From NCBI GenBank assembly GCA_964607825.1, contig CAZSNA010000002.1:39770-103769 (forward strand): 64,000 nt of DNA, given 5' to 3'. The position numbers and the translations under genes are program-made. The DNA comes from an uncultured Fibrobacteraceae bacterium. GTDB taxonomy: Bacteria > Krumholzibacteriota > Krumholzibacteriia > LZORAL124-64-63. This document shows, one piece after another, positions 19,971 to 35,154 of the stretch; within the stretch, counting starts at the first letter, position 1; each line of letters starts with the position of its first letter. A model generated the notes under the pieces. The model saw only the letters and a list, made by a program, of their open reading frames with translations. It searched no databases and was not told where the DNA came from.

Positions 19971-20173
19971 GCTATGCCCTTGTGGTGACATGACATAATG
20001 GCAGCCGCTGGTCGCCCGTTGTACTCAGGTAAGAGTGTCTGATTCCTAACTCATTCTTTGTAAACGATTTACACGCAATCTCCCTTCCGGCCGTCTCCGG
20101 CACGCCCCCTGCAATACCCTTGAGACGACCCATCCGCGCTGATGCGCTTTCGGATAGAGAGAGGGAGAGCCCC

Positions 20174-22792
20174 ATGAAGAACCTGACCGTCAACGCCGCC
20201 GAGACCCTGCAGCGCGCCCAGTCCCGCGCCTACGAGACCGGCCACCCCGAGCTGGAGCCCCTGCACCTGCTGTGGGCCCTGCTGGCCGAGACCGGCGTCG
20301 CCGGCAGTGCCCTGCGCAGCCTCGAACTCGATCCCCGGCTCGTGCTGCGCACCGTCGAGGGCGAGCTGGCCAACCTGCCGACCGTCGAGCAGAAGGACGT
20401 GCCGGCGCCCGGCCGCGACCTGCAGCAGGTGTTGCTGGAGGCCCAGTCCCTGGCATCGCAGTCTTCCGGAGGCATGGTCGGCACGCGCGAGTTGCTGCTG
20501 GCCGTCGCCGCGGGCAACGGTCGCGCGGGCAGCGTGCTGAAGACCTTCGACGTCACGGCCGACAAGCTCGCCCGGGCCCTCGAGTCCGTCGGCGCCACCG
20601 GCGCCTACCAGGGCGACCAGGAGCCCGAGGTCGGCGGCGAGTCCGCCCTGGACCGCTACGCCCGCGACCTCTGCGCCGCCGCGCGCGACGGCAAGATCGA
20701 CCCGGTCATCGGCCGCGACGAGGAGATCCGCCGCGTGGTGCAGATCCTCTCGCGCCGCACCAAGAACAACCCCGTGCTCATCGGCAGCCCCGGCGTGGGC
20801 AAGACCGCCGTGGCCGAGGGCCTCGCCCGCCGACTGGTGGCCGGCGACGTGCCCGTCGGACTGCAGGGCAAGACCCTCTATACCCTGGACATGGGCGCCC
20901 TGCTCGCCGGCGCCAAGTACCGCGGCGAGTTCGAGGACCGGCTCAAGGGCGTGATCAAGGAAGTGACCGGGCGCGAGGGCGACACGCTGCTCTTCATCGA
21001 CGAGATGCACACGCTGGTCGGCGCCGGCGCCGCCGAGGGCGCCATGGACGCGTCGAACATCCTCAAGCCCGCCCTCGCCCGCGGCGAGTTGCACTGCATC
21101 GGCGCCACCACCCTCGACGAGTACCGCCGCCACATCGAGAAGGACCCCGCCCTGGAGCGGCGCTTCCAGCCGGTGATGATCGAGGAGCCCACGCGCGAGC
21201 AGGCCGTGGCCATCCTGCGCGGCCTGAAGGAGAAGTACGAGGTGCACCACGGCATCCGCGTGTCCGACTCGGCCGTCGTGGCGGCGGTGGACCTGTCGAG
21301 CCGCTACATCAGCGACCGGCAGCTCCCGGACAAGGCCATCGACCTGATGGACGAGGCCGCCTCGGAGCTGCGCATGGAGATCGACTCGGTGCCCGCCGAG
21401 GTGGACGTCCTGCAGCGACGCCGCGACCAGCTCGAGATGGAGAAGCTCGCGCTGGAGAGCGAGACCGAGGCGCAGGCCGTCGCCCGCCGCGAGGCCATCG
21501 AGCGCGAGCTGGCCGAGATGGAGGACGAGCTCGCGTCCCTGCGCGCCCGCTGGGAGCAGGAGAAGGCGGCCATCGACGACATCCGCGCCCTGCAGGCGGA
21601 GCAGGAGCGCCTCGGCACCGGGATCGAGGACGCCCAGCGCCGCGGCGACCTGGCGCAGGCCTCGCAGCTCAAGTACGGCCGCGCCAGCGAGCTGGAGACG
21701 GAGATCGACGCGGCCCGCGCGCGCCTGGTCGAGCTGCAGGGCGAGCGTCCGCTGCTGCGCGAGGAGGTGGAGGAGGAGGACATCGCGCGCCTGGTGGCCA
21801 AGTGGACCGGCATCCCGGCCCAGCGTTTGGTGGAGGACGAGACCGCCAAGCTGCGCGCGCTGGAGTCGCGCATCGCCGGGCGCGTCGTGGGCCAGGACCA
21901 CGCCGTCGCCCAGGTGGCGCGCACCGTGCGCCGCGCCCGCGCCGGCCTGACCGACCGCGACCGCCCCCTCGGATCGTTCCTGTTCCTCGGCCCGACCGGC
22001 GTAGGCAAGACCGAGCTCGTGAAGACCCTCGCCGCCGAGCTCTTCGGCGACGAGCGCCACATGGTGCGCCTGGACATGTCCGAGTACATGGAGCGCCATA
22101 GCGTGGCCCGCATGATCGGCGCCCCCCCCGGCTACGTGGGCTTCGAGTCGGGCGGACAGCTCACCGAGGCGGTCCGCCGCCACCCCTACACGGTGATCCT
22201 GCTGGACGAGGTGGAGAAGGCGCACCCCGAGGTGATGAACGTCCTGCTGCAGCTGCTCGACGACGGTCGCCTGACCGACGGCAAGGGCCGCGTGGTCGAC
22301 TTCCGCAACACCCTGGTGGTGATGACCAGCAACCTCTGCCAGGAGGAGCGTTTCGCGCCCCGCGCGGACCTCGACGAGGCCGGCCGCCGCGAGCAGGAGC
22401 AGGAGCTGCTGCAGTCGCTGGCCCAGCACTTCCGGCCCGAGTTCCTCAACCGCGTCGACGCGGTGGTGAGGTTCAACGCGCTCACGCGCGAGCTCATCCG
22501 CGTCATCGTGGAGCTGGAGCTGGCCAAGGTGGACGCCTCGCTGCGCGAGCAGCGCGTGCGCCTGAGCTGGACGCCGGCCGCGGTGGACCGTCTGGCCGAG
22601 CTGGGGTTCGACCCGCAGTTCGGCGCGCGGCCGGTGAAGCGCGTGATCCAGCGGGAGGTGCAGGACCGTCTGGCGGACGGGATCCTGGCGGGCGAGGTGT
22701 CGGCGGACGGGGAGGTGGAGCTGGACGTGGACGGTGACGGGTTCACGCTCGGCGCGGTGCTGTGCGGGGAGGTGAAGGAGGGGGAGGCGTGA
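20174..22792 (+). CDS. clpB: ATP-dependent chaperone/disaggregase ClpB
   Basis: ATG 20174 after GAGAGGGAGAG. Clp N-domain repeats, two AAA+ modules ([16 protein letters not shown]), a long coiled-coil middle domain, and [10 protein letters not shown] near the C-terminus. Confidence 0.95.
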
Positions 22793-22826: not shown

Positions 22827-22855
22827 AAGAGCGGGGCCTCGCGGCCCCGCCCTCT
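22827..22855. terminator. GC-rich hairpin terminator between convergent clpB and the TIR gene
   Basis: GCGGGGCC-TCGC-GGCCCCGC core with an extended stem and an A-run upstream. It is near-identical to the hairpin at 24808-24831. Confidence 0.55.
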
Positions 22856-22880: not shown

Positions 22881-24698
22881 TCATGACTCAATGAAGTAGA
22901 TCAACCGGTCGTTGAAGTGGATGTCGCTCAACTCGGGTGGCGGCTCCGGCACCGGGGGCCCCTCCAGGATCACCGGCAAGATGTCCGGTGGCTTCTCCTC
23001 GATGCCCCTCTTGCGCTCGAGAGCGTAGAGCACTTCCCGCTTCACCCACTCCGAGGCTTTGGCCGCCGAGGACCAGAAGAGCAGGAAGAGGTCCGCGTCG
23101 TCGATACGGCGGTAGAGCTCCTTCTCCCAGCGAGCGCCCGGGTCCAGGGAGAGCAGGTCCTGGAAGTACTCGATGTTCACCCCCGCGAGCATCTGGACCC
23201 GCTTGAGAACCTCGTTGCGGTCGGGTGTTGCGTATGAGACGAATGCGCTTTCGTACCTCTTGAGTCGACCTGACGCCGCGGATGCTGGCTCACGATCGGC
23301 CACCTCGCCCGCCCGATCCGCGACGCCGATCCGGAAGTGCACCCTGCCGCAGGGAACTCCGTCGCACAGTACTCGCAGGCAGCCGATGATCGTCTCACCG
23401 GCGAAGTCGTCCGGCACGTCGAGCTGGAAGGTCGCGCGCTTGGGATCGCCGCGCCAAATGAAGGATCGTACCGGATCGTCGATCCGCATGCCTGGAGACG
23501 ACAACTCCAGGCTGAGACGCTGGCCCCGCTCGACCAAGTCCTCCAGGCCTGATACGCCGAGCCGTTTCGCTTCCGGATCCATCTTGCGGTTGAGCGACTC
23601 CACGTGTTCCGCCTGGTCCGGTCGATGCGCCCAGGCCTCGACGATCGTGCTGCAGCCCATTCGGACACGGGGTTGGGAATAGACCGTGCAGTCGAGGTCG
23701 TCGCTGAGGGTGTCCGGTTCAACCTCGGCTCGTGCCGGAGTGATCGTTCCGAAGGGTTCGGTAGGGATGAGGAGAGGATGCCAGCCCTGAGGTCCCGTTC
23801 TGGGTGGAAGGACCAGGTCGCTGGAGCGAGGCAGCACGAGCGGCTCACTGATGGTGCTTGCTTCCAACGGCCCGCTCGGTCGAACGGCCATCGCCTCTTC
23901 GCCCGGTGCATCGTCCACGCCGCCGGATGAGCCCGGATCATCCGTGGTACCGACCATCGCGGAGATCCGGATCTCGCCCTGTGCGCCGGCAGCGGTCGCA
24001 TTGCCGAACAGCAGCGTTCCCTGCCCATCGAAGGAATCCACTAGATACTTCGTCGCGTCCGCCATTTCACTCAAACGAAGGTCGGAGGCCGCGATCGTGA
24101 TGATGATGGTTCCGTGGCGATCATCCAGTTCGCGTGCAATGGAGTCCGCGAGATGGCGTGCGCCCACAGTGCTCCGATCTGGGCCGGAGGAGACAACGGA
24201 ATGATGACGCCAGATGGAATCGCCTACATGAGGGCCCAGGATGTCCGCCAGGGGGGCGTTGATCTGGTCGGGTCCCAGCAGCGAGGCCAGGATGGAGGCG
24301 CACCCTGCCGGATCGGCGCCGTCATCAAGCAGCAACAGTCCGCCTGAGACCTCACGGAGCGCCTTGCGATGAAGAGCCGATGCCGGTGACTCGTCCGTCA
24401 CCCGCGGAGAGATGAAGTACGCGGATGCGGGAAGCTCCTCGGAGGCGAGAGCGAGCTGGCAGGCCATCATGCCGCTCTCGTCCACTTCCAGCTCCAGCAT
24501 CGCTACAATCCCCGCCCGTGCATCCAGGCGTTTTTTCAGGGGGATGTCGGACCCGGTCGCTTTCTCGAAGTCGTCCGGCTGCAGTTGGAGTAGATCCTCG
24601 GCGTCAAGGCCGTTATCGCGCAACGTGGTGAGCACCTGCTCTCCGTAGCCGCCGATCCCGACGAACAGAACACCTGTGGATCCCTTGTGCTCGTGCAT
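22881..24698 (-). CDS. degenerate FtsZ/tubulin-like domain - beta-sandwich - TIR domain protein
   Basis: ATG 24698 after GGGAGG. The N-terminus reads like FtsZ with degraded GTP motifs: VLFVGIGGYGEQVL resembles VIGVGGGGGNAV, LLLLDDGADPAGCASILA resembles FIAAGMGGGTGTGAAPVIA, and GTIIITIAASDLRLSEMADATKYL...GEIRISAMVGT resembles GVLVNITAGFDLRLDEFETVGNTI...DELRVTVVATG. The C-terminal 124 aa (nt 22884-23255) form a TIR domain: AFVSYATPDR...DLFLLFWSSAAKASEWVKREVLYA, with the conserved W..E glutamate. Codon usage is visibly less GC-biased than in neighbouring genes. Confidence 0.85.
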   Translation of the reverse strand: MHEHKGSTGVLFVGIGGYGEQVLTTLRDNGLDAEDLLQLQPDDFEKATGSDIPLKKRLDARAGIVAMLELEVDESGMMACQLALASEELPASAYFISPRVTDESPASALHRKALREVSGGLLLLDDGADPAGCASILASLLGPDQINAPLADILGPHVGDSIWRHHSVVSSGPDRSTVGARHLADSIARELDDRHGTIIITIAASDLRLSEMADATKYLVDSFDGQGTLLFGNATAAGAQGEIRISAMVGTTDDPGSSGGVDDAPGEEAMAVRPSGPLEASTISEPLVLPRSSDLVLPPRTGPQGWHPLLIPTEPFGTITPARAEVEPDTLSDDLDCTVYSQPRVRMGCSTIVEAWAHRPDQAEHVESLNRKMDPEAKRLGVSGLEDLVERGQRLSLELSSPGMRIDDPVRSFIWRGDPKRATFQLDVPDDFAGETIIGCLRVLCDGVPCGRVHFRIGVADRAGEVADREPASAASGRLKRYESAFVSYATPDRNEVLKRVQMLAGVNIEYFQDLLSLDPGARWEKELYRRIDDADLFLLFWSSAAKASEWVKREVLYALERKRGIEEKPPDILPVILEGPPVPEPPPELSDIHFNDRLIYFIES

Positions 24699-24807
24699 GC
24701 AGACCTCCCGTCGAGATGACGAAATGCGTGGGCGGTCCCCAGGATATCATGATGCGGTCTGGGGATATACCTCACGTACTCTGCGTCGGTCCGTAGCTGC
24801 AAAACAA

Positions 24808-24831
24808 GGGCGGGGCCTCGCGGCCCCGCCC
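24808..24831. terminator. GC-rich hairpin terminator after the LTD gene / upstream of the TIR gene
   Basis: GGGCGGGGCC-TCGC-GGCCCCGCCC, a perfect 10-bp stem preceded by AAAACAA. Confidence 0.55.
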
Positions 24832-24855
24832 TCTCTCGTACCCATCCGGGACGAC

Positions 24856-27540
24856 TTACTTGATCAACGTCATCTTCTCCGCCTGCGTGAAGCCGGAGCC
24901 CGTCTTCAGGCGGTAGAAGTAGGTGCCGCTGTTCACCGGGCGTCCGCTCTCGTCGCGGCCGTCCCAGCTGTAGACGTTCAGGTACTCGCCGGCGGTCAGG
25001 TGGGCGTCGACCACCTTGCGCACGTGGCGGCCGCGGATGTCGAAGACGTCCAGGGCGACGTGGTCGTCGCGCTCCAGCATGAAGCTGAAGCTCGTCTTCG
25101 GGTTGAAGGGGTTGGGGTAGTTGGCGCCCAGCGCGGTGGCGAGCACGGGCGTGTCGCCGATGCCGGTGGCGTCGTAGTTGGCCGCGCCCGGGGTGCCCTG
25201 GTCGCCGTCGCCGAAGGTCGGGCCGCCGGCTCCCCAGTTGGAACCGACGTTGTTGTCGCCCGAGGTGAACTGCATCGACTGGCCGTTCGGATCCGGCCAC
25301 AGCGTGCCGCCGTCCCAGGCCACGTAGTCGATCTCGGCCATGGTGGCGTCGTAGAGGATCAGCTCGTCGGCGCCGTTGCTCAGGCCGATGCCGCTGTAGA
25401 CGTAGTCCGCCGTCACGCCCTGGGTGGCCATGGTGTCGGCGTTGACGCAGAACACCATGTACTCGCCCGGGTTGATGACCAGCGGGCCGCCGTTGGCGAT
25501 CAGGTGCGAGTCGAAGTCCGCGTCGGCGATGGTCCAGCCTTCCAGGTCCACGGCCTCGGTGTCGGCGTTGTAGAGCTCGAACCACTCGCCGCCCGAGTCG
25601 TAGACGACGTAGGGGTTCTGCATGATCTCGTTGATCACGATGGCGGGCAGCTCGGGCACGTCGATGACCGCGGTGGTGTTCGCGGCGATCGGGTTGCCGT
25701 GCTGGTCCTCCACGTTGTTGACGCGCACGGTGTGCTCGGGGACGCCCAGGGTCGAGGCCAGGGTCAGCACCACGTAGGTGGGGTCGCCCTGCACGACGGC
25801 CTCGGTCACGGCGATGGTGTTGGCCGGCGTGGCCGTCTCGTAGACCTCGTAGTTGAGCGCGTCGGCGCCGGTGATCGCGTCGATGGGCTCGTTGTAGAGC
25901 AGGGTGACCGAGGTCGTCGCGGTCAGCGTGGCGCTGGTCAGGGTCGGCGGATCGAGGTCGGGATCCTGGCCGTTGTTGGTGATGTCCGAGAGGAGGCCGA
26001 CGATGATCTGGCCCTGCCCGGAGTAGGTGCCGCCTGCGCCGGCGGCCACCAGCTCGTCGCCGATCAGCCAGGTCTCCAGGCCCGGGGCGACGTCGTCGTC
26101 GATGCGGATCACCACGTCGCCCGAGCCGTCGTTGATCGTGAAGTTGTGGGCCGGGTTGCCGCCGGCGGTGGTGGCGATGGCCGTGATCGGGCCGGTGGTG
26201 CCGGTGTAGGTGCCCTCGTTGTTGGGCAGGGCGGCGTTGGCGGTGGTCTTGATCGTCGGGCTCAGCGCCGGGTTGCCGGTGCTGACCAGCTCGACCTCGT
26301 AGCTCACCAGCTCCAGCGTCGTGAAGTAGTAGTCCACGCGGCCGGTCACCTTGACGATGTTCGAGGTGTCGTTCAGCAGCTCCATGCCGGTGCTGTAGTA
26401 GGTGCCGTAGATGTTCAGGCCCCGGCCGGAGGCGTCCTGCACGTAGGCGCTGACGGAGGTGCCGTCGGCCTGGTAGTTGCCGGGGATGAAGACCTGGCCC
26501 TGGATCATGATCGTGGTGCCGTCGAAGCCGGCCGAGTCGGCGTGCACGAAGGAGATGGGCGTGATGGTCTCGGGCGCCACGGCGTAGGTGTAGAAGCTCA
26601 GCGGAGCGTCCGACGGGTTGGTCGTGGTCTGGGTGTCGTCGTCGGTGGCCGAGACGTAGTAGTCGACCGTCGAGCCGTCGGGGGCGCCGGGAATGGTGCC
26701 CGTGTAGGTGTCGCCCGTGTCCAGGGCCATGGCCACGGTCGAGAAGCCGCCGCCGTCGACCTGGTAGTGGATGCTCGCCGACGTGACGATGCCGTCGTTG
26801 TCGGTGATGTCGGCGTAGACCGTGACGGTCTCGCCGGGGATGGGCAGCAGCGAGCGGTGATAGACGTTCGCGACCGCGGGCGGCACGGGCTGCACGCCGC
26901 CGTTGCTGGCGCCGGGGGTCGGGTCCTGCGCGTTGTACGCGGTGGTGACCAGGGCGCCGCCGCCGCCGTCGGGGATGCGCTGGTTGGAGTGGCCGGTCCC
27001 GTCGCCGTTCATGCGCTCGTCCACCTGGGGCTGGCCCGGCGTCAGGACGTCCAGCAGGCCGGTGTCGTCGGCGTCGCCGGTGTCGTAGACGATGGCGTCG
27101 ACCAGGTTGGTCGCGGTGACGGCCGTGCCGACGGGGAAGTCCGTGTCGTGGCCCGTGTACAGGGCGACGGCGTCGGCGCCGTTCTGGATCAGGTTCGTGT
27201 CGGGGGTCACGTCCCAGTCGCAGTTGGCGACGTTGGCCGCGTCGCCGCAGACCACGAAGAAGCCGTTCGCGTCACAGACGTAGCCGTCCAGGTCGAAGGC
27301 GGCGTACGACGTGTCGGAGCTGCCGTTGAAGAGGACCAGTACGAGACCGTCCAGCGACTCGCTGGGAGCACCGTAGAGCTCGATGAACTCCGCGCTGTCC
27401 GTGCTGACCTGGTCGGCGTCGACCTCGTTGATCAGTACGACGGCCTGGGCGCTCGCGGCGCCGAGGACGAGGGCGAGCAGCAGCGTCAACCAGACCTTGG
27501 CGGCGCTCCCGAATCGTGTCGATGTCTGCATGGTCATCAT
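24856..27540 (-). CDS. secreted lamin-tail-domain (LTD) / OB-fold protein with T9SS-type CTD (ExeM/NucH-like architecture, no nuclease domain seen)
   Basis: Signal peptide ...WLTLLLALVLGAASAQA. Two LTD modules (VVLINEVDADQV..AEFIELYG and IVINEIMQNP...GEWFELYNAD). OB-like segment (IMIQGQVFIPGN...VKVTGRVDYYFTTLELV). C-terminal NYPNPFNPKTSFSFML...GTYFYRL...MTLIK. Confidence 0.8.
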   Translation of the reverse strand: MMTMQTSTRFGSAAKVWLTLLLALVLGAASAQAVVLINEVDADQVSTDSAEFIELYGAPSESLDGLVLVLFNGSSDTSYAAFDLDGYVCDANGFFVVCGDAANVANCDWDVTPDTNLIQNGADAVALYTGHDTDFPVGTAVTATNLVDAIVYDTGDADDTGLLDVLTPGQPQVDERMNGDGTGHSNQRIPDGGGGALVTTAYNAQDPTPGASNGGVQPVPPAVANVYHRSLLPIPGETVTVYADITDNDGIVTSASIHYQVDGGGFSTVAMALDTGDTYTGTIPGAPDGSTVDYYVSATDDDTQTTTNPSDAPLSFYTYAVAPETITPISFVHADSAGFDGTTIMIQGQVFIPGNYQADGTSVSAYVQDASGRGLNIYGTYYSTGMELLNDTSNIVKVTGRVDYYFTTLELVSYEVELVSTGNPALSPTIKTTANAALPNNEGTYTGTTGPITAIATTAGGNPAHNFTINDGSGDVVIRIDDDVAPGLETWLIGDELVAAGAGGTYSGQGQIIVGLLSDITNNGQDPDLDPPTLTSATLTATTSVTLLYNEPIDAITGADALNYEVYETATPANTIAVTEAVVQGDPTYVVLTLASTLGVPEHTVRVNNVEDQHGNPIAANTTAVIDVPELPAIVINEIMQNPYVVYDSGGEWFELYNADTEAVDLEGWTIADADFDSHLIANGGPLVINPGEYMVFCVNADTMATQGVTADYVYSGIGLSNGADELILYDATMAEIDYVAWDGGTLWPDPNGQSMQFTSGDNNVGSNWGAGGPTFGDGDQGTPGAANYDATGIGDTPVLATALGANYPNPFNPKTSFSFMLERDDHVALDVFDIRGRHVRKVVDAHLTAGEYLNVYSWDGRDESGRPVNSGTYFYRLKTGSGFTQAEKMTLIK

Positions 27541-27733: not shown

Positions 27734-27745
27734 TGGAGCCATATC

Positions 27746-28273
27746 GTGAATGATGACAAGCAGTTGAGCCTCGGCATCACGGGGCACCGGCACCTGGGGG
27801 ACCCCGAGGCGGTGGCCCAGGCCCTGGACCGGGCGGTCGCGACGCTGGCCGGACCGGCGCCCCCGCTCTACAGCGCACTCGCCGAGGGCTCCGATCGCCT
27901 GGCGGCCCGGTCGGTGCTGGCGGCCGGCGGCCGCCTTCACGTCGTGCTCCCCCTGGCCCCCGACGACTACCGGAACGACTTCGCCGACGACGCCTCGTGG
28001 GCCGAGTTCAACGCGCTGCTGTCGCGCGCCGAGACCGTCGAGACCGTGCCGCCCCAGCCGGACCGCGGCACGTCCTATCTCATTGCCGGTCGCCGTGTGG
28101 CGGACCTGTGTGATATCCTGATCGCCGTCTGGGACGGTCGTCCCGCACGTGGTCGCGGCGGCACCGCCGAGATCGTGGCCCATGTCCGGTCGGCGGCGCG
28201 CCCCCTGTATTGGATCGACAGCGAAGATCCCGCGCGCGTGGTGCGCGAACGCATGCCTGGAGATATCCGGTAG
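27746..28273 (+). CDS. SLOG-superfamily (Smf/DprA-LOG, YpsA/LSDAT-like) predicted nucleotide-ligand-binding protein
   Basis: GTG 27746 lies 7 nt after GGAG; an alternative GTG exists at 27716. Motifs: LGITGHRHL, SALAEGSDRLAARSVL, LHVVLPL, CDILIAVWDGRPARGRGGTAEIV. Confidence 0.7.
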   Translation: MNDDKQLSLGITGHRHLGDPEAVAQALDRAVATLAGPAPPLYSALAEGSDRLAARSVLAAGGRLHVVLPLAPDDYRNDFADDASWAEFNALLSRAETVETVPPQPDRGTSYLIAGRRVADLCDILIAVWDGRPARGRGGTAEIVAHVRSAARPLYWIDSEDPARVVRERMPGDIR

Positions 28274-29338
28274 GTGTCCATGTTCGAGCCTCGCCCCGTC
28301 AAGACCATCGCCGCCGACCAACGGGATGCGGAGGTGCGTCGACGCGCCGAGGGGTACATGAAACTGCTCGCGGCCTGCTGCGAGGAGCGGCCACTCCCGA
28401 AGCAGGTCTGCGCCCGTCTGGCCGAGCGGCTCGAAGCGACCGCCGCACATTTCCTGCCCCGCTACGTCGAGGTCAACCACGCCGCCATGAGCTTCCAGGC
28501 GCGCTATCGTCGCGCCTCGATCGCCGTCTTCGTGCTGGCCGCCGCGGCGCTGATCGTGGTGGCCGGCCAGCACGTGTTCCACGGTCCGCGCTGGCTGGTG
28601 GGCCTGGAGGTGGCCGCCATCGCGACGGTCCTGGCCATCTTCCACCTGGGCAACCGCTTCGGCTGGCACCGCAACTGGGTGGACTACCGTTTCCTCGCCG
28701 AGCGCCTGCGCACCGGCCTGTTCGTCGCCTTCCTCAGCGGCAAGACCAACGCCGACGACGAGCTGCACTGGTCCGACCGACTGATCGAGGAGTCCTGGTG
28801 CCTGGACGAGGTCGCAGACCTGTGGCGCGGCCGGCCCCGCTTCGCGACCCCGCCGCCGGAAGCGGTCCCGGTCCTGCAGGACTTCATGCGGCGCGCCTGG
28901 CTCGACATCCAGCGCGGTTTCCACGAACGCAAGGAGCGCGGCGCCCTGCACACCCACGAACGCATCTCCCTGGCGAGCGAGACGCTGTTCTGGCTGACCT
29001 TCATCGCGGCGATCCTGCACCTGTTGCCCCACGACTGGCTGCACGCCGCGCGTCTCGACGGCCTGTTGACCGAGCCGCGTCTCACCTTCGCCGTGATCGC
29101 CCTGCCCGCCTTGGGCACGGTCTTCTCCGGCCTGCGCGGGCATTTCGAGTTCAAGAAGCAGTCCGTCCGGGCGGGGGTCATGGTGCGGTATCTCGAGCAT
29201 CTGGATGGGAAGCTGAGCAACGTGCAGGATCTCGAGGATCTCCTGCGCGTGGTCTGGGAGACGGAGCTGCTGATGCTGCAGGAGAACGCCGGGTGGCATC
29301 TGAATACCATGTCGAAGCCGATCGAGGTGGAGGCCTGA
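28274..29338 (+). CDS. membrane protein with two tandem 2-TM SLATT-like modules (predicted pore-forming effector)
   Basis: GTG 28274 abuts the upstream TAG; an alternative ATG exists at 28280. First TM pair ASIAVFVLAAAALIVVAG / WLVGLEVAAIATVLAIFHL, then WHRNWVDYRFLAERLR. Second TM pair TLFWLTFIAAILHLL / LTFAVIALPALGTVFSGL, then an amphipathic helix. Confidence 0.65.
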   Translation: MSMFEPRPVKTIAADQRDAEVRRRAEGYMKLLAACCEERPLPKQVCARLAERLEATAAHFLPRYVEVNHAAMSFQARYRRASIAVFVLAAAALIVVAGQHVFHGPRWLVGLEVAAIATVLAIFHLGNRFGWHRNWVDYRFLAERLRTGLFVAFLSGKTNADDELHWSDRLIEESWCLDEVADLWRGRPRFATPPPEAVPVLQDFMRRAWLDIQRGFHERKERGALHTHERISLASETLFWLTFIAAILHLLPHDWLHAARLDGLLTEPRLTFAVIALPALGTVFSGLRGHFEFKKQSVRAGVMVRYLEHLDGKLSNVQDLEDLLRVVWETELLMLQENAGWHLNTMSKPIEVEA

Positions 29339-29361
29339 GGGAGAAAGCGAGAGGTTGATCC

Positions 29362-31929
29362 ATGCCTAAGCCGAGAATCCTGGTCGCGGGCGACATCGTC
29401 AAAGACAACCACATCTACGTCGGCGAGCGGTCGTATCCCTCCCTGGACGAGATGGGCACCTATCGTCGTCAGATCGACGGGGGGGCCAGGTTGCTCTGCA
29501 GCCTCGTCGAGAAGGTGTACAAGGAAGCGGCGGAGTCGGTCGAGCCCTACATGAGTTCAGGGCCTAACGACAGGGCCTACGCTGTGTGGAATGTCGTCAA
29601 GCAGGCCAAGCTCTCAGACAAGGAAGACAAGAACGAGACCTGGCGCGTCTCCCAGCTTCTCGGCTACAGCCCCAAGCCGGAATGGAGGAACAACGGTCTT
29701 CCCAAGGGTGAGTGTCCCGACTGCGATATCGCGGTTCTGGATGACGCCGGTCTGGGGTTCCGCTTCGCGAAGAGGACGTGGCCCAAGTTCATGCTTGATG
29801 ACGGCGAGCCCCATCACCCGGACTGGATCATCCTGAAGATGAGCCACCCCGTGCTCGAGGGGGATCTATGGTTCGAGCTCCGCAAGCGCTACGTCATGGA
29901 CAGGGCGGAGGGACACAAGATCGTCATCGTGGTGGGGGCGGAGGATCTTCGACGGAGCGGCGTCACCATCTCGAGCGGGCATTCGTGGGAACACAGCGTC
30001 CAGGACCTGCTCGACGGCTTCAAGGACAATCAGATCTTCGCCGGCGTTCGCGAGTGCGGCCACTTCCTCGTCACCTTCCAGAGCGAGGGCGCGCTCTGGA
30101 TCGACAACACGGGCGACGCTCCGAGGGCCAAGCTCGTCTTCGACCCGAAGCGGCTGGAGGGCGACTATGAGGACGAGTTCGAGGGCCAGATGGTCGGAGC
30201 CGGGTCCTGTTTCACGGCCGGCCTGGTCGGCGCCTTTCTCGAGTCGCCCGACTCCGCCGCCATGGAGCTGGGCATCAAGCGCGGACTCCATGCGGCCAGG
30301 GTCCTCTGGGAAAGAGGCCATGAACCCGTCAGCCGGAACAGGGCGCCCGGCTATCCCTTTTCCGCGGTGCGCAAGGCCCTGAGCAGCAAGCCCGACACGT
30401 ACACCTGCTCCGAGGTTCCGCACGCGGCTTTCCGCGAGGGAACACACGACTGGTCGTTCCTCGAAGACGGCGGGCACCATGGAACGCCCATGTACGGCCA
30501 GGCCCGGCGACTGGCCCTGAGCGGCTTCAAGGATCTGAAAGGCATCCCCTACGGGGAGTACGGCGCCCTCCTCACGGCGGACCGCGGCGAACTGGAGAGC
30601 TACAACTCGCTGCGCCGTCTCATCCTGTCGTACAGGGACGATACCGGGGCCAAGAAGCCGCTCTCTATAGGCGTGTTCGGTCCGCCGGGCGCAGGTAAAT
30701 CGTTCGGCGTGGAAGAGATCGCGAAGGGGACTCTCGGCCAGGACGTACCCCTGCTGGTCTTCAATCTCTCGCAGTTCGACATCAACACCCCGGACATGCT
30801 GCACGGAGCCCTGCACCAGGTTCGCGACGAGGCGATCAAGGGCAGCACTCCGGTCGTCTTCTGGGACGAATTCGATTGCCGAGGTCTGCAGTGGCTCCAG
30901 TACCTGCTGTCGCCCATGCAGGACGGTTCGTTCGTCGACGATCAGATCACACGTGTCCTGGGGAAGTGCCTGTTCGTGTTCGCCGGCGGCGTGATGAGCT
31001 CGCGCCAGGAGTTCGTGACGGCGGCGGAATGGGAGAAGAAGGGCATCGAGGAATTCGAACAGCTCAAGGGACCGGACTTCGCCAGCCGGCTGCACGGATA
31101 CCTCGACGTGCTCGGCCCCAATCGCCGGGAACCGCGGACGAAGGACGAATACGGTCGGGACCTGTTGGCCCGGCCCGACCTGAGCTTCCCGGTCAGGCGG
31201 GCGATTCTCATCCGGGGTCTGCTGAGAGTGGGTAAATCGGACGAACTGGACATCGACCCCGGACTCCTGAACGCCTTGCTCAAGGTGCGGTCCTACAAGC
31301 ACGGTACCCGATCCCTGCAGAACCTGCTGAAGATGCTGTCCAAGAACCCCGAGGGCCGGTACATGCCGTCGAGCCTGCCGCCGGCGGAGCAGCTCCGACT
31401 TTTCGTCGACGAGAAGGAGTTCATGGAGCATGTCGTCGAGTACGAGTCGTTCCAGACCTGTTGCCACGAGCTGGCGGTGTCCGTCCACGATCACTACTGG
31501 GACGACAAGATCAAGAGGGGGTGGGGCAAGGAAGAGGACCGGGAGCCGTTCGAGCAGCTGAGCGAATCCTTGAAGGCCGACAACGTCGCCGCCGCACTGC
31601 GGATCCCGGAGATCCTGGCTCTTGTGGGGCTTCGTCTCGTCAGGAAGGAGTCATCGTTCGAGGGAGACCCCAGGGAGATCAAGACCATACTCGAGAACAA
31701 CATCGAGCTGCTCGCGAGAGCCGAGCACATCCTCTGGCGACGATACCGAACCCTGAGCGGCTGGAAAGTGCACAAGAAGAGCAAGACGGACTACGTCTGG
31801 AAGCGGCACAAGGATCTGATCGATTTCGACGATCTCACTCCGGACAAGCAGGAGTACGATCGGGACAGCGTCCGGGCCTATCCGGCCAAGGCCGACAAGG
31901 CCGGGTTCAAGATCGTCAAGGAATCCTGA
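29362..31929 (+). CDS. PfkB/ribokinase-like - AAA+ ATPase - RyR-domain fusion protein
   Basis: ATG 29362 after GAGAGG. N-terminal ILVAGDIVKDNHIY...GGARL...VGAGSCFTAGLVGAFL (GAGD-type motif with D replaced by S). Walker A GPPGAGKS (30679-30702) and Walker B VVFWDEFD (30853-30876). C-terminal RyR-type repeats: HDHYWDDKIKRGWGK... and ILWRRYRTLSGWKVHKK..KRHKDLIDFDDLTPDKQEYDRDSV. Uses AGA/AGG/AAA/TTG codons that are rare elsewhere in the window. Confidence 0.8.
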   Translation: MPKPRILVAGDIVKDNHIYVGERSYPSLDEMGTYRRQIDGGARLLCSLVEKVYKEAAESVEPYMSSGPNDRAYAVWNVVKQAKLSDKEDKNETWRVSQLLGYSPKPEWRNNGLPKGECPDCDIAVLDDAGLGFRFAKRTWPKFMLDDGEPHHPDWIILKMSHPVLEGDLWFELRKRYVMDRAEGHKIVIVVGAEDLRRSGVTISSGHSWEHSVQDLLDGFKDNQIFAGVRECGHFLVTFQSEGALWIDNTGDAPRAKLVFDPKRLEGDYEDEFEGQMVGAGSCFTAGLVGAFLESPDSAAMELGIKRGLHAARVLWERGHEPVSRNRAPGYPFSAVRKALSSKPDTYTCSEVPHAAFREGTHDWSFLEDGGHHGTPMYGQARRLALSGFKDLKGIPYGEYGALLTADRGELESYNSLRRLILSYRDDTGAKKPLSIGVFGPPGAGKSFGVEEIAKGTLGQDVPLLVFNLSQFDINTPDMLHGALHQVRDEAIKGSTPVVFWDEFDCRGLQWLQYLLSPMQDGSFVDDQITRVLGKCLFVFAGGVMSSRQEFVTAAEWEKKGIEEFEQLKGPDFASRLHGYLDVLGPNRREPRTKDEYGRDLLARPDLSFPVRRAILIRGLLRVGKSDELDIDPGLLNALLKVRSYKHGTRSLQNLLKMLSKNPEGRYMPSSLPPAEQLRLFVDEKEFMEHVVEYESFQTCCHELAVSVHDHYWDDKIKRGWGKEEDREPFEQLSESLKADNVAAALRIPEILALVGLRLVRKESSFEGDPREIKTILENNIELLARAEHILWRRYRTLSGWKVHKKSKTDYVWKRHKDLIDFDDLTPDKQEYDRDSVRAYPAKADKAGFKIVKES

Positions 31930-31996: not shown

Positions 31997-32590
31997 CTAT
32001 CTCAGGATTCGCGCCATCTCCCTCTCCACTTCCCGCCCCCGATCCCGCCCATACCAAAGATGCAACCTCTCCAGCATCTCCGGCTTCTCCAACCCCTCCG
32101 CCTTCGCCTGCGCGACCACCGCCTGCGCCGCCGCCGGCCGCGGCCCCCAGCCCCATAATTCCTCGCCCTCGGCGTCGAACACCACCAGCCGCGGAACGGC
32201 GCGCCCGCCGTTCGTCAGGTAGCGGTCCATGATGTCGAGGTTCTCGTCGCGCGGCAGGATGCGCAGCTCGATCAGCGGATTGCGCGCGGCCATGGCCGCC
32301 AGGTAGGGCAGGCACTGGGCCGAGTCGCCGCACCAGGGCTCGGTGAGCACCATCCACAGGCGGGGTTCGGCGACGGCGTCGAGGCGGGCGGCGAGGTCGT
32401 CGGAGACCTCGTAGGTGCGGCCGATGCGACGGGAGCGATGCAGGTTGAGCTTCGTGTAGCCGACGCGCTCGGCGGCCTCGGGGTCGAGACCCTCGGTGGG
32501 GGCGTCCGCCTGCCGCTCCATCAGCTCGAGGTAGGCGTCGTAGTCGAGGCCCCCGTGGGGGCGGCGGTCGAGGAAGAACTGTGCGGGCAT
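31997..32590 (-). CDS. thioredoxin-like fold protein
   Basis: ATG 32590 after GGAGG. MVLTEPWCGDSAQCLP motif and the RAVPRLVVFD pattern of thioredoxin-family proteins. Confidence 0.7.
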   Translation of the reverse strand: MPAQFFLDRRPHGGLDYDAYLELMERQADAPTEGLDPEAAERVGYTKLNLHRSRRIGRTYEVSDDLAARLDAVAEPRLWMVLTEPWCGDSAQCLPYLAAMAARNPLIELRILPRDENLDIMDRYLTNGGRAVPRLVVFDAEGEELWGWGPRPAAAQAVVAQAKAEGLEKPEMLERLHLWYGRDRGREVEREMARILR

Positions 32591-32714
32591 GGCGCCTCCG
32601 GGCGAGTCTCGCGGGTCAAGTCGTTCGCGCGCGGGTCGATGATCAGGGGAGGGGTCGGCGCCGTCAAGATCGTCCCGGCTCCGGACCGTCACGAACGCCG
32701 TGAAGGGGTGTGCC

Positions 32715-33842
32715 ATGATCCGCCGTATGTTCCTCGTGCTCCTGCTGCTCGCCGGCTGCTCCGGCGACGATCCCGCCGAGCCGCCCGCGAACGACGAGCC
32801 CGGCTGTCCCGACGGCCCCATGCTCACCGTCAGCCCCATCGCCTTCGAGGATCTCGACAGCGTCTACCCCCTGGGCAACATCAATCCGCCCGGGCACATC
32901 TCGCCGACCGATCACATGGGCCTGACCATCCGCGTCGAGCCCGGCGCGGACGCGCCCGTGGAGACGGATCTGCTCTCGCCCGGCGACCTGGTGGTCACGC
33001 AGCTCAGCGCCCAGGAGTTCGTCAACGCGGGCTACGCCGACTTCGGCATCGGCCTGCAACCCTGCGAGGACATCTACGTGGGGTTCGGGCACGTCACCTC
33101 CCTGGATCCCGACCTCTTCGACTTCGCCGGCGACTTCGCCGACTGGACCCTGCTCAGCGAGGACGTCCAGCCGGACGAGACCTACCGCTACTACCGCTTC
33201 GACTGCGAGGTGCCGGTGGTCGCCGGCCAGCGCCTGGGCAGCGGCGGGGGCGTCGCCGACCAGTGGGGCGTGGACATCTCCGTCTACGACCTGACCCTCC
33301 CTCCCGCGACCATGGCCAGCGACCGCTGGGACGGCGAGTGGTACCTCAACTCGCGCTGCATCCTCGACTACTTCGTCGACGGGGCCGTCCACGACGCGCT
33401 CTACCAGCTCCTGGAGCTTCCGCAGGACGTGCTGGACGCGGGAGACGCCTGCGGCAACCTCTACGACGACGTGCCGGGCGCCCTGCGCGGCGTCTGGTTC
33501 CACGAGAGCACGACCCTGACCTGGCCCGACGAGAACAATCTCTCGTTCTCCGTGCGCAACACCGATCCGGGCCAGTACCTGATCGGCATGGGCGTCGCCG
33601 CGGCGACCGTTCCGGGCGCCGCGTATTTCATCGAGACCACGACGACCGGCAACGTGAACAGGGTCTTCGAAGAGGTGACCCCGGCCTCGGGGCTGCAGTA
33701 CTACGATCCCCTCTACCAGGGCGGCCTGCTGATCCTGGTGCAGATGGTCGCGCCGGACACGCTGTGGATCGAGGGCGTGGCCGGCGCGGAGCCCGGAGAC
33801 GGGGTCCAGTTCAGCGGGGCGAAGTCGGTGTTCGTGCGCTGA
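32715..33842 (+). CDS. hypothetical lipoprotein
   Basis: MIRRMFLVLLLLAGC|SG lipobox. No confident domain assignment. Confidence 0.65.
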   Translation: MIRRMFLVLLLLAGCSGDDPAEPPANDEPGCPDGPMLTVSPIAFEDLDSVYPLGNINPPGHISPTDHMGLTIRVEPGADAPVETDLLSPGDLVVTQLSAQEFVNAGYADFGIGLQPCEDIYVGFGHVTSLDPDLFDFAGDFADWTLLSEDVQPDETYRYYRFDCEVPVVAGQRLGSGGGVADQWGVDISVYDLTLPPATMASDRWDGEWYLNSRCILDYFVDGAVHDALYQLLELPQDVLDAGDACGNLYDDVPGALRGVWFHESTTLTWPDENNLSFSVRNTDPGQYLIGMGVAAATVPGAAYFIETTTTGNVNRVFEEVTPASGLQYYDPLYQGGLLILVQMVAPDTLWIEGVAGAEPGDGVQFSGAKSVFVR

Positions 33843-33927: not shown

Positions 33928-35154
33928 ATGAAGACCGCCTGGATCCCCATCGTCCTCGCCGCCCTGGGACTCGGCTCGACCGCCGAGGCCAGCAGCTGCG
34001 CTCCGGAGGACCCCTTCGCCGCCGCCGATGCGGCCGCGGCCGCCAACGCCTTCGCCGTCGATCTGTATCGCGAGATCTCCGCCGGCGACGACAACCTCTT
34101 CTACTCGCCCTCGAGCCTCGCGGCCGCTCTGGCCATGACCTGGGCGGGCGCGCGCGGGGAGACCGCCGCCGAGATGGCGGACGTGCTCCACCTGCCCGCC
34201 GACCAGGCCGCGGCCCACGCCGCCTGGGCCGCCCTGCAGGACGCCTGGGCGCCGGGCGAGGACGCGACCCACCGCCTGGAGGTCGCCAACCGGCTCTGGC
34301 CGCAGATCGGCTTCGACCTGCAGCCGTCGTACCTGGAGCTGGTGCGCGAGCGCTACGACGGCGGCCTGCAGCCCCTCGACTTCGTCGGCGATCTCGAGGG
34401 CTCGCGCCTGACCATCAACGCCTGGGTCGAGGATCGGACCGAGGAGAAGATCAAGGATCTGCTGCCTCCGGGCAGCCTCGTCCCCGCCACGCGCCTGGTG
34501 CTGACCAACGCCGTCTACTTCCTCGGCGACTGGAAGCACGCCTTCGAGCCCCGCGCCACCCGCGACGAGGATTTCCGCCTGCCCGACGGCGGGACGGTCG
34601 CGGCGCCCATGATGCGCCAGGTCGAGCGCCTGAACCTGGCCGTGCACGAGGGGGTGCGCGTGCTGGAGCTGCCCTACGCGGGCGAGGAGCTGTCCATGTT
34701 CGTGCTGCTGCCCGACGCGCCCGACGGCCTGGCCGATCTGGAGCGCCGTCTCGACGCCGCGACCCTGGAGACCTGGCTGGGCGGCGCGACGCCCGAACGG
34801 GTGCGCTGCGTGCTGCCGAAGTTCAGCGTCACGGCCGGCTTCGACCTGGCCGCGACCCTGGCGAAGATGGGCATGCCCTCGGCCTTCGCGCCGTCGCGGG
34901 CCGATTTCTCGGGCCTGACCGGCGGCAAGGACCTGGTGATCGATCGCGTGATCCACAAGGCCTTCGTGGACGTGGACGAGACGGGCACCGAGGCGGCGGC
35001 GGCCACGGCGATCACCATGAAGCTGACCAGCGTGTCCAATGAGCCGCCTCCGGTCGAGTTCCGGGCGGACCATCCGTTCCTGTACCTGATCCGGCATCGG
35101 GAGACCGGCGCCATCCTGTTCCTGGGGCGCTTGACGGATCCGCGGACGTCTTGA
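33928..35154 (+). CDS. serpin family serine protease inhibitor (secreted)
   Basis: Signal peptide, then NAFAVDLYREI...NLFYSPSSLAAALAM. Hinge/reactive-centre loop DETGTEAAAATAITMKL and C-terminal FRADHPFLYLIRHRETGAILFLGRLTDP. Confidence 0.9.
   Translation: MKTAWIPIVLAALGLGSTAEASSCAPEDPFAAADAAAAANAFAVDLYREISAGDDNLFYSPSSLAAALAMTWAGARGETAAEMADVLHLPADQAAAHAAWAALQDAWAPGEDATHRLEVANRLWPQIGFDLQPSYLELVRERYDGGLQPLDFVGDLEGSRLTINAWVEDRTEEKIKDLLPPGSLVPATRLVLTNAVYFLGDWKHAFEPRATRDEDFRLPDGGTVAAPMMRQVERLNLAVHEGVRVLELPYAGEELSMFVLLPDAPDGLADLERRLDAATLETWLGGATPERVRCVLPKFSVTAGFDLAATLAKMGMPSAFAPSRADFSGLTGGKDLVIDRVIHKAFVDVDETGTEAAAATAITMKLTSVSNEPPPVEFRADHPFLYLIRHRETGAILFLGRLTDPRTS

Follow-up and report, generated by a model that had tools for sequence, protein, structure and literature searches.

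What could a bacterium achieve by packing a predicted nucleotide receptor, a predicted pore-forming membrane protein and a large ATPase with a ryanodine receptor (RyR) domain into a single run of three genes? The question is raised by open reading frames (ORFs) 1, 2 and 3, which together occupy positions 27746–31929 of a 64,000-nucleotide stretch of contig CAZSNA010000002.1 from an uncultured Fibrobacteraceae bacterium (assembly GCA_964607825.1); this whole stretch is referred to below as the window. Judged from sequence, the best reading of the trio is a nucleotide-gated membrane effector, and the locus is most likely a variant of the Thoeris-like anti-phage suicide systems. We consider it highly probable that the three genes work as a single functional unit within a TIR-associated conflict network. 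The full statement, according to which the trio would supply the receptor and the effector of a TIR-linked conflict system that signals by nucleotides in the manner of Thoeris, with ORF3 as its signal-binding accessory regulator, we rate at about even chances. This reading, with a signal of the ADP-ribose (ADPR) type, is adopted because the genes neighbouring ORF3 homologs include TIR, DUF4062-STAND and SLOG genes, because a natural ORF3–TIR fusion exists and because the RyR domain of ORF3 has a pocket of the type found in the phage RyDEP proteins.

Gene neighbourhoods of the ORF3 family

Relatives of ORF3 were found in at least 539 species genomes, belonging to most bacterial phyla and including one archaeon, in a scan that used one genome per species. 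The full-length homologs show 33–46% identity, and the family is annotated only as 'RyR domain protein'; three matches lie on plasmids, where they are named 'RyR domain-containing protein' (RefSeq), 'Ryanodine receptor Ryr' or hypothetical. The surroundings of these genes were surveyed with local hidden Markov models in 80 ORF3 loci plus the window, within 8 kb of ORF3, and 15 of the local TIR calls were checked against Pfam, each of them passing the TIR_2 model. TIR or DUF4062 (DUF4062-STAND) genes are present in 46 of the 80 loci. The co-occurrence of ORF3 homologs with SLOG and SLATT genes, proposed earlier as a check, is evident from the same survey, with an ORF1-type SLOG gene in 29 of the 80 loci, 19 of them also having SLATT; both TIR/DUF4062 and ORF1-type SLOG are found in 17 loci, while about 19 contain TIR or DUF4062 together with ORF3 only.

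The TIR genes are concentrated close to ORF3. Their density is 1.64 per 10 kb at distances up to 1 kb and drops to zero at 6–8 kb, and of the 25 TIR genes situated at most 1 kb from ORF3, 21 share its strand. In four loci (L008, L062, L056 and L037) the TIR gene, a fused SLOG–SLATT gene adjoining it and ORF3 form a tight operon, and several ORF3 loci hold two or three TIR genes. The association extends to gene fusion: the protein P0388 (1322 aa) has the architecture RKL-AAA-RyR-HTH-TIR_2 (RKL, ribokinase-like domain; HTH, helix-turn-helix), and in P0267 (1638 aa; RKL-AAA-NACHT-TPR) a NACHT-TPR part replaces the RyR domain. Other recurrent neighbours of ORF3 are LSDAT-type SLOG proteins and giant proteins of the DUF4062-NACHT/NB-ARC-TPR and TIR-WD40 types. 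When compared with 11 reference TIR domains, the TIRs encoded beside ORF3 homologs are mostly closest to those of type III Thoeris, which has a SLOG effector, or to '4TM SLOG' TIRs (TM, transmembrane). A direct assignment of DUF4062 to the TIR domains was considered and dropped, the hhalign match (E 0.0018, probability 15%) being too weak for that call.

These data modify the earlier view of the trio as a self-contained unit. Its isolation by a divergent gene upstream and a convergent gene downstream is correct, and the trio is nevertheless probably not self-contained, because the genes of this family share operons with TIR or DUF4062-STAND genes and in one case ORF3 and TIR are fused; in the window itself a TIR gene is located 3 kb upstream.

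Several further gene types adjoin ORF3 homologs. Proteins with two TM helices and a TrkA_N/RCK part, mostly with a C-terminal RyR domain, are encoded beside ORF3 homologs or ORF1-type SLOG genes in nine loci (L003, L040, L048, L051, L063, L075, L039, L097 and L099); they are in effect prokaryotic ion channels with an RyR domain and recall the 'ion channel' effectors of type X Thoeris. RelA_SpoT-LSDAT(SLOG)-RyR fusions of 720–970 aa adjoin ORF3 homologs in L005, L013, L018, L024, L025 and L078, with a version devoid of RyR in L073; with their RelA part they match PDC-S33, a PADLOC candidate (E 3.7e-16). They resemble effectors of the toxSAS type equipped with two nucleotide-sensor domains. Small single-repeat RyR ORFs of 86–136 aa, the size of RyDEP, directly adjoin ORF3 homologs in L002, L034, L042, L046, L049, L058 and L018, and in three loci (L052, L076 and L077) two genes take the place of ORF3, one for a ribokinase-like-AAA protein and one for an RyR-RyR protein. 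In L095 (4814–9677) an ORF1-type SLOG gene begins within a patatin gene, the overlap being 4 nt, and a TIR_2 gene is nearby, which corresponds to the unverified 'SLOG Patatin' Thoeris candidate with the SLOG as a separate protein. On plasmid pA of Methylobacterium sp. FF17 (L084, 302–10679) the ORF3 homolog is divergent from a gene for a 2082-aa 'SIR2 family protein', and an insertion sequence (IS) transposase gene and an HTH gene lie between them. Toxin–antitoxin (HipA) and CHAT genes also occur near the trio in relatives.

The RyR domain of ORF3 and its ligand pocket

The C-terminal part of ORF3 (31411–31926 on the plus strand, aa ~684–855) is a pair of RyR Repeat12-like (R12-like) units, the first of them degenerate and the second canonical, as assigned with the Pfam RyR model and Foldseek. 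The Pfam RyR family (PF02026) matches with a score of 32.3 against a cut-off of 27.4, and among sequences in the Protein Data Bank the region matches 6uhi (E 4.6e-15) and 3nrt. Foldseek aligned it to 6uhi, to 6uhh (R12 of RyR3 with bound ATP) and to 9ls7 with TMt values of 0.5–0.6 over 176–197 columns. The RyR repeats read in the earlier note thus stand as a domain assignment but not quite as a number: sequence models give one repeat, the second, degenerate one being visible only in the structure model and in the family alignment.

The pocket of repeat 2 is strongly conserved, with H789, W792 and D833 present in 110 of 110 ORF3 homologs and H816 in 102 of them. The degenerate repeat 1 retains H709 and an aromatic residue at position 712 and has N741 instead of the Asp. 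The pocket residues of ORF3 align with those of a Bacteroides thetaiotaomicron RyR domain, where their spacing (H, +3 W, +25 H, +42 D) is that of RyDEP; by way of this alignment and the text of PMC13232231, H789, W792, H816 and D833 of ORF3 are equated with H75, W78, H100 and D117 of RyDEP. The RyDEPs are phage RyR/R12-domain proteins that cleave the ribose–ribose bond of 2'/3' cyclic ADP-ribose (cADPR) or sequester such signals with nanomolar affinity; their pocket residues are conserved across PF02026, and of the homologs sharing these residues the majority bind the signal without cleaving it (PMC13232231). The R12 domain of animal ryanodine receptors binds the adenine nucleotides ATP and ADP (PMC12627627). 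By analogy, the RyDEP precedent points to a ligand of the ADPR type at the RyR cleft of ORF3 and not at its kinase-like domain alone.

Relatives of ORF3 were absent from 2.9 million viral contigs. A phage collection gave one weak match, to the RyR region, and a fold search of BFVD with ORF3 returned generic AAA+ matches only.

The SLOG and SLATT proteins

ORF1 (27746–28273, plus strand; 175 aa) is a stand-alone SLOG-fold protein of the YpsA-like clade, and its predicted role is that of a receptor for a nucleotide signal. Its AlphaFold2 (AF2) model, built on a deep alignment, has a mean confidence (pLDDT) of 95.3, and the best Foldseek match to this model is YpsA (2nx2; TM 0.72, E 1.7e-7), followed by DprA, LOG, ShosA, MCP and the SLOG domain of ThsA; for the latter (7uxs) the TM value is 0.45, below the 0.72 of YpsA. 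Together with the conserved motifs, the fold bears out the SLOG assignment proposed earlier. GxTGHR, LAEG-x-D (which includes the GxD/E motif) and GGT are retained across 99 ORF1 homologs, at least 90% of which keep G10, G13, H14, R15, E47, G48, D50, G138, G139 and T140. The GxD/E motif has been described as the signature of the YpsA clade (PMC6459960) and corresponds in ORF1 to G48-S-D50; a profile alignment pairs the ORF1 motif with GLAKGID of DprA. No curated SLOG model matched ORF1 above its cut-off, the best being YAcAr with 14.5 bits against 28.2, and no precomputed Pfam domain was present in any of the 120 ORF1 homologs listed; the protein is accordingly a member of a SLOG family for which neither Pfam nor NCBIfam has a model. 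The weak Pfam matches over the 99 homologs are almost only to the SLOG clan (YAcAr 31, DprA 17, YpsA 8, nucleoside deoxyribosyltransferase 7, cpYpsA 4 and LDcluster4 3). YpsA, the closest fold, has a role in cell division and oxidative stress (PMC6459960).

ORF2 (28274–29338, plus strand) is a tandem 2-TM, that is 4-TM, membrane protein of the SLATT/DUF4231 type, and its predicted role is that of a pore-forming effector. It scores 28.4 with Pfam DUF4231 (cut-off 24.7) and a borderline 41.3 with NCBIfam SLATT_1 (cut-off 41), and Kyte–Doolittle analysis gives four hydrophobic segments arranged as two 2-TM hairpins, in keeping with the SLATT layout, in which such a hairpin precedes a cytoplasmic helical region. 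The first hairpin (28505–28654, aa ~78–127; peaks of 2.3 and 2.0) lies in the region matched by both models; the second (28961–29137, aa ~230–288; peaks of 1.7 and 1.6), like the first on the plus strand, is less well seen by profiles, NCBIfam reporting a second weak SLATT_1 stretch at a position not given. The two tandem SLATT hairpins that had been read from the letters are thus confirmed, with weak profile support for the second. No similarity was found by BLAST between the two halves of the protein.

The SLOG and SLATT proteins appear to act together, since in many relatives they are one polypeptide: in at least 12 ORF3 loci the two are fused into a protein of 540–650 aa, and P0243 (536 aa), a close fused relative, is 55% identical to ORF1 and 64% to ORF2. 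The split trio as it occurs in the window is found in L081/82, L083, L090/91 and L027 with different flanking genes, so the synteny of the three genes in other genomes, split or with SLOG and SLATT fused, is well supported. The gap between the split genes is 6 nt in L081 and 5 nt in L090, and in L083 they overlap by 4 nt, the identities to ORF2 among these three loci being 59%, 63% and 46%; stand-alone ORF2 homologs of 351–354 aa share 40–73% identity. We considered that the junction of TAG and GTG in the window might represent a freshly broken SLOG–SLATT gene, that is a pseudogene, and rejected this idea because stand-alone ORF2 homologs of full size exist and because L081, L083 and L090 keep the split with differing junctions.

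The ribokinase-like and AAA+ modules of ORF3

The AF2 model of ORF3 (pLDDT 91.8, predicted TM score 0.91) describes a three-module protein, composed of a ribokinase-like domain, an AAA+ ATPase and the RyR Repeat12-like region, which is a member of a large uncharacterised family. Pfam recognises RyR and AAA only. The N-terminal module (29362–30396, plus strand; aa 1–345) has by Foldseek a ribokinase/PfkB-like fold with a non-canonical active site, matching nucleoside kinase 2c49, HldA, ketohexokinase and ribokinase, with 4e84, 7ag6 and 1rka among the matched entries (E 1e-7 to 1e-6, TMt 0.46–0.54). The PfkB-like character ascribed to it earlier holds for the fold and for the missing Asp of GAGD; the Pfam PfkB family (PF00294) itself gives no match even at E≤1. 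Of the PfkB substrate-binding motifs the domain retains a GG motif (G40, G41) and an N-terminal Asp. At the place of the GAGD catalytic Asp the family has Tyr, Phe or Ala, with the consensus G279-(Y/F/R/S)-x-S-C, and NXXE is missing, the consensus being S-A-D-D-L-R197 with neither Asp nor Asn at the expected positions. For both motifs the register comes from motif comparison alone, because hhalign of the ribokinase-like sub-alignment with an approximate sequence of E. coli RbsK gave no alignment. The lack of the GAGD Asp and of NXXE makes canonical phosphotransfer unlikely. At the same time D11, D15, W94, R95, D127, R134, K159, R197 and E210 are invariant charged or aromatic residues, and from its sequence the domain looks like neither a canonical kinase nor a decayed one. 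It is represented by 1269 clusters at 50% identity in a phmmer search, almost all as the N-terminal module of the ORF3 architecture; this statement is drawn from the best 150 clusters, which are nearly all proteins of ~850–950 aa matched at their N-terminus, two of them having been domain-checked.

The AAA+ ATPase module (30544–31401, plus strand; aa ~395–680) scores 23.8 with Pfam AAA (cut-off 21.2) and is most similar in Foldseek to ClpA and ClpC. Residues G440, P442, G443, G445, K446 and S447 of Walker A (GPPGAGKS), D502 and E503 of Walker B and R576, the Arg of the second region of homology, are invariant in 110 ORF3 homologs, in full agreement with the classical AAA+ module reported before. 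Between the two Walker motifs, a conserved F-N-L-S-Q-F loop would occupy the position of pore loop 1 of classical AAA+ proteins.

Organisation of the locus

The layout given in the earlier note, three same-strand, nearly contiguous ORFs with a TAG/GTG junction and a 23-nt spacer containing GAGAGG, was found in the sequence exactly as described. ORF1 starts with GTG, not ATG; the start is most likely the GTG at 27746 (an alternative GTG is at 27716), given the public gene calls and the Shine–Dalgarno-like GGAG at 27735–27738, 7 nt upstream on the plus strand. Its stop codon (28271–28273) is contiguous with GTG 28274, from which ORF2 has 354 aa; from the in-frame ATG 28280, the start used in the public gene calls, it has 352. 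These calls give 175, 352 and 855 aa for the three proteins. The TGA of ORF2 (29336–29338) is followed by the spacer and by the ATG of ORF3 (29362–31929, plus strand; 855 aa), with the Shine–Dalgarno-like GAGAGG at 29349–29354 on the same strand, read from the sequence as was GGAG, again 7 nt upstream of the start.

In a window of about 70% GC chance ORFs are a concern. The GC content at third codon positions (GC3) of the trio is 0.84–0.91 against 0.40–0.52 at second positions (GC2), and each of the three proteins has hundreds of homologs, with E-values that reach 0 for ORF3; for these reasons we regard the trio as real genes. All peptide motifs quoted earlier are present in the translations: GITGHRH, SALAEGSDRLAA, VVLPL, CDILIAVWDG..RGGTAEIV, WHRNWVDYRFLAERLR, VGAGSCFTAG, GPPGAGKS and VVFWDEFD. 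An identical locus is carried by 14 metagenome contigs. The trio is divergent from the minus-strand gene at 24856–27540, which encodes a secreted protein of the lamin-tail domain (LTD)/type IX secretion system (T9SS) type, and convergent with a minus-strand gene for a thioredoxin-like protein at 31997–32839. A scan of 22–33 kb with Rfam gave no RNA family; neither a sigma-70-like promoter nor a convincing terminator was found at the locus, nor were tRNA genes in or around it or direct repeats flanking the trio.

The TIR gene and the surroundings of the trio

The minus-strand gene at 22881–24698 encodes a protein of 605 aa with a C-terminal TIR_2 domain (nt ~22914–23243; Pfam E 2.5e-17). This domain is 41% identical to the TIR encoded beside the ORF3 homolog of L005 and, among the 11 reference TIRs, is best matched by a type III Thoeris TIR; with the NCBIfam model of type III ThcB4 it reaches 23 bits against a cut-off of 220. 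The protein is possibly the signal-generating partner of the trio acting in trans, its membership in the system being uncertain. Residues 1–480 gave no family assignment beyond a weak FtsZ_C match (E 0.05), and the start of the protein, MHEHKGSTGVLFVGIGGYGEQVL, resembles a nucleotide-binding G-rich loop; this N-terminal part of 480 aa may be a sensor.

GC3 is 0.77 for the TIR gene, 0.84–0.91 for the trio and 0.92–0.98 for the neighbours, the value of the TIR gene being the lowest near the locus, with only two distant ORFs lower. The TIR gene is bracketed exactly by two copies of a 29-nt GC-rich palindrome, AAG(A/G)GCGGGGCCTCGCGGCCCCGCCCTCT, at 22827–22855 and 24806–24834, with a third copy at 783–808. 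The two copies at the TIR gene are 97% identical, the number of matches expected by chance being 0; the palindrome may be an element like a repetitive extragenic palindrome (REP) or a terminator, or it may have been left behind when the TIR gene was inserted. On the other side of this gene, the 890-aa ORF at 20120–22792 was taken by the local AAA model for a second ORF3-like protein and was discarded, as Pfam identifies it as ClpB, a housekeeping chaperone.

Very large secreted proteins with FlgD_ig/T9SS-type C-terminal sorting domains are encoded at 3809–6685, 6792–11684 and 24856–27540, one of them with Lamin-tail domains and one with a beta-helix. Taken with the GC content of about 70%, they suggest a host resembling the Gemmatimonadota, the FCB group or a candidate phylum. 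Downstream of the trio, at a distance of 2 kb, there is a gene for a full-length bacterial serpin (33928–35154, plus strand; Pfam Serpin E 2.6e-111).

Possible mechanism and alternative explanations

If the trio supplies receptor and effector to a TIR-linked system, the following sequence of events may be proposed. Upon infection or another insult a TIR-type enzyme, here possibly the 22881–24698 protein in trans, would turn nicotinamide adenine dinucleotide (NAD+) into an ADP-ribose-derived signal. The signal would be bound by ORF1, and the contact of ORF1 with ORF2 would make the SLATT hairpins oligomerise or open, the breach of the membrane leading to death or arrest of the cell as in abortive infection. 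The RyR cleft of ORF3 (H789/W792/H816/D833) would bind the same class of ligands and ATP hydrolysis by the AAA+ module would control the response, so that ORF3 would most likely be an accessory regulator setting the threshold, the amplification or the reset of signalling. Its kinase-like domain may provide a further pocket of the ribose/nucleoside type, devoid of canonical kinase activity.

A number of observations weigh against this proposal. The TIR gene of the window is outside the operon of the trio; it lies on the other strand, 3 kb upstream of ORF1 and separated from it by the unrelated, native-looking LTD gene, and the closest relatives of the trio (L081–L083, L090/91) have no TIR within 8–9 kb. 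Nor is the window a defence island: apart from the genes discussed, it encodes housekeeping or secreted proteins, among which are ClpB, peptidases, secreted proteins of the T9SS type, a serpin and a sulfatase. The constancy of ORF3 in our census is an ascertainment effect, because the loci were fetched with ORF3: full ORF3 was found in none of seven independently fetched loci of ORF1-type SLOG (SLOG1), which contain RyR proteins in three cases, DUF4062 in three (STAND-TPR being evident in two), patatin-SLOG with TIR in one and SLATT_3 in one. In 15 of 81 ORF3 loci the gene stands alone among housekeeping genes. The conserved pocket neither separates binding from catalysis nor identifies the ligand, given that R12 of the animal receptors binds ATP/ADP (PMC12627627), and both two-gene 'TIR + SLOG and 4TM' constructs assayed by Yirmiya et al. 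gave no defence in E. coli (bioRxiv 10.64898/2025.12.03.692087).

In a first alternative the trio would be complete in itself, the AAA+ module of ORF3 sensing a phage cue, its ribokinase-like domain or the glycosidase-type dyad of its RyR domain making or converting a ribose-containing molecule, and ORF1 sensing this molecule and opening ORF2. The window's own clade keeps the trio without TIR over these distances, the divergent and convergent genes bound it, H789/D833 correspond to the catalytic dyad of RyDEP, and the many invariant charged and aromatic residues of the ribokinase-like domain suggest a working rather than a decayed site. We still find this unlikely: canonical phosphotransfer is hard to expect from a domain with neither the GAGD Asp nor NXXE, TIR and DUF4062 are the commonest partners family-wide and P0388 fuses ORF3 to TIR, and SLOG1 modules elsewhere work with TIR or DUF4062 and no ORF3. 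Moreover, in L081 (4151–7414) and L090 (5143–8427) two co-directional, tightly packed genes (577–585 aa and 503–506 aa), which the window does not have, precede SLOG–SLATT–ORF3 on the 5' side and could be the missing input. Their products had no Pfam or PADLOC match and no similarity to the window or its TIR protein; the pair may be the input module of that clade. ORF3 could also be an RyR-gated effector of its own, parallel to SLOG–SLATT, in which a TIR-derived signal switches on the AAA+ module and the harm is done by protein unfolding or ATP consumption, perhaps with a contribution of the kinase-like domain. The loci in which TIR or DUF4062 is accompanied by ORF3 alone have the classic two-gene Thoeris layout, RyR domains of the neighbourhood look sensor-like and are fused to effector modules (RelA_SpoT, 2TM-channel-RCK), and the F-N-L-S-Q-F loop falls at the inferred position of pore loop 1. 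Yet there is no recognised toxin among the modules of ORF3, the TIR partners include many STAND/WD40/TPR giants, proteins that as a rule act as NADase effectors on their own, and the solo ORF3 genes sit among housekeeping genes. We consider such an effector quite improbable.

To the same low degree we would credit a role of ORF3 as an off-switch or buffer of the host, with the RyR domain sequestering or hydrolysing signals of the cADPR type and the AAA+ module disassembling active TIR or effector oligomers to prevent auto-immunity, by analogy with ring nucleases and with Trip13 in CBASS. The RyDEP precedent with the invariant H789/D833 dyad and the small stand-alone RyR proteins adjoining ORF3 homologs are in line with it, and ORF3 being optional for SLOG1/TIR modules fits an accessory role; but signal binding without cleavage is the rule among RyDEP homologs that have these residues, the ribokinase-like domain is given no reason to exist, and trio-only and solo loci offer no obvious target to be switched off. 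The trio could, finally, have nothing to do with immunity and constitute a physiological circuit sensing NAD+/ADPR or adenine nucleotides in stress response, ion homeostasis or developmental cell death of complex bacteria. The housekeeping and secreted surroundings in the window agree with this, as do the K+-channel-like RCK proteins and RelA/SpoT domains among the partners, the binding of ATP/ADP by the animal R12, the involvement of YpsA, the closest fold, in cell division and oxidative stress (PMC6459960) and the complex life styles of the taxa rich in this family (Planctomycetota, Chloroflexota, Acidobacteriota and Myxococcota). A patchy spread across phyla that includes one archaeon, plasmid copies beside IS elements and a giant SIR2 protein, atypical GC3, HipA toxin–antitoxin and CHAT genes nearby in relatives, and variable modular partners, as is typical of conflict systems, speak against it, and we think it very unlikely.

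Significance

Returning to the TIR-linked reading of the trio, the combination of SLOG with a 4TM effector is an already published, unverified candidate type of Thoeris; the novelty lies in the ribokinase-like/AAA+/RyR family and in its connection with TIR signalling. It is a tentative thought, on balance somewhat doubtful, that host proteins of this family are a widespread, unrecognised component of TIR- or DUF4062-based immune signalling in which RyR takes its place beside SLOG, Macro, SAVED and CARF as a receptor of second messengers of the cADPR type. If this is true, the sponges and glycosidases of the RyDEP type found in phages would derive by capture from a host receptor, and the nucleotide cleft of R12 in animal ryanodine receptors would trace back to a bacterial immune module. 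SLOG-4TM effectors might then need ORF3, which would explain the failure of the published two-gene constructs.

Thoeris-type signalling is thought to be present in about 8% or more of prokaryotic genomes. To our knowledge its accessory or regulatory layer is barely known, only Cap2/3 and Cap9–11 having been noted, and we know of no described host counterpart of the cADPR-handling phage RyR domain. That the RyR domain in phages binds or destroys signals that are cADPR isomers was shown as late as May 2026 (PMC13232231). The host RyR family considered here is tied to TIR, SLOG and SLATT in three ways, by shared operon gene order, by the ORF3–TIR fusion and by the conserved RyR pocket, and the locus thus gives candidates for a new signal receptor or regulator, for the missing partner of the unverified 'SLOG-4TM' type and for an origin of the RyR nucleotide-binding module in prokaryotes. 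Among cultured bacteria the carriers include Intrasporangium oryzae NRRL B-24470, which has a tight TIR-ORF3-SLOG operon, as well as Oligosphaera ethanolica DSM 24202 and Maioricimonas sp. JC845.

Comparison with known systems

SLOG–SLATT conflict systems were reportedly predicted by Burroughs et al. in 2015, and the earlier note held that none had been put to an experiment. This is out of date: in the work of Yirmiya et al. (bioRxiv 10.64898/2025.12.03.692087) the SLOG domain of ThsA is the receptor of 3'cADPR, type VII Thoeris has a verified SLATT effector with cADPR as the signal, type X employs an ion channel, and 'TIR + SLOG and 4TM', as said above, was tested and gave no defence, the source loci being those of Streptomyces sp. 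GKU 895 and Ca. Nitrospira nitrosa COMA1 (IMG genes 2862473379/80 and 2691454909/10); 'SLOG and 4TM' and 'SLOG Patatin' are listed there as candidate effectors. RyR is mentioned neither in the text nor in the supplements of that paper, and AAA is absent from the text, its two supplementary occurrences displayed being organism names. Kaur et al. 2020 mention neither RyR nor DUF4062, and our literature search found no paper linking RyR domains with SLOG, SLATT or host TIR systems. In the Pfam/NCBIfam names and in passages of two papers (PMC6459960, PMC7159879) the SLATT families are defined by association or fusion of a SLOG sensor with a 2-TM pore-forming effector. In line with the earlier note, no model of a named defence system matches the trio: PADLOC (PADLOC-DB of 2023, in which Thoeris types V–XI are not covered) has no match for ORF1 or ORF2 and one at the level of the P-loop only for ORF3 (mad8, E 0.009), and none of the defence or Thoeris models of NCBIfam is matched.

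The closest likeness is to the candidate 'TIR + SLOG and 4TM' (Yirmiya et al., Tables S1/S2), whose effector, a SLOG with four TM helices, equals the sum of ORF1 and ORF2; in the window, however, this effector is split into two translationally coupled genes, the TIR is outside the operon and ORF3 is added. With type VII Thoeris (ThsB TIR and ThsH SLATT) the locus shares a SLATT membrane effector of the kind thought to oligomerise on a TIR-made ADPR-derived signal, and it differs by a separate SLOG as the presumed receptor, by the tandem 4-TM form of SLATT and by the extra ORF3. Types I and III (ThsA SIR2-SLOG; ThsD SLOG effector with several TIRs) likewise use SLOG as the receptor of the TIR product, and the two or three TIR genes of several ORF3 loci are reminiscent of type III; in contrast to these systems, ORF1 is nearer to YpsA/DprA/LOG than to the SLOG of ThsA and the output in the window is a membrane protein instead of SIR2.

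The RyR region of ORF3 has the fold and the four pocket residues of the phage RyDEPs. These are small phage-encoded anti-defence homodimers, whereas ORF3 belongs to the host and joins its tandem repeat, of which one unit is degenerate, to AAA+ and ribokinase-like modules. With the kinases of the PfkB/ribokinase family ORF3 shares the fold of residues 1–345, the GG dipeptide and the N-terminal Asp, whereas its domain lacks a PF00294 match, the GAGD Asp and NXXE and occurs almost exclusively at the N-terminus of the ORF3 architecture. The likeness to TRPM2 and the ryanodine receptors is an analogy of parts only, their membrane domains not being homologous to those discussed here; in these channels a SLOG or RyR module that binds ADPR or adenine nucleotides controls the conductance of a membrane, and LSDAT and channel-RCK-RyR proteins occur in the same gene neighbourhoods as ORF3.

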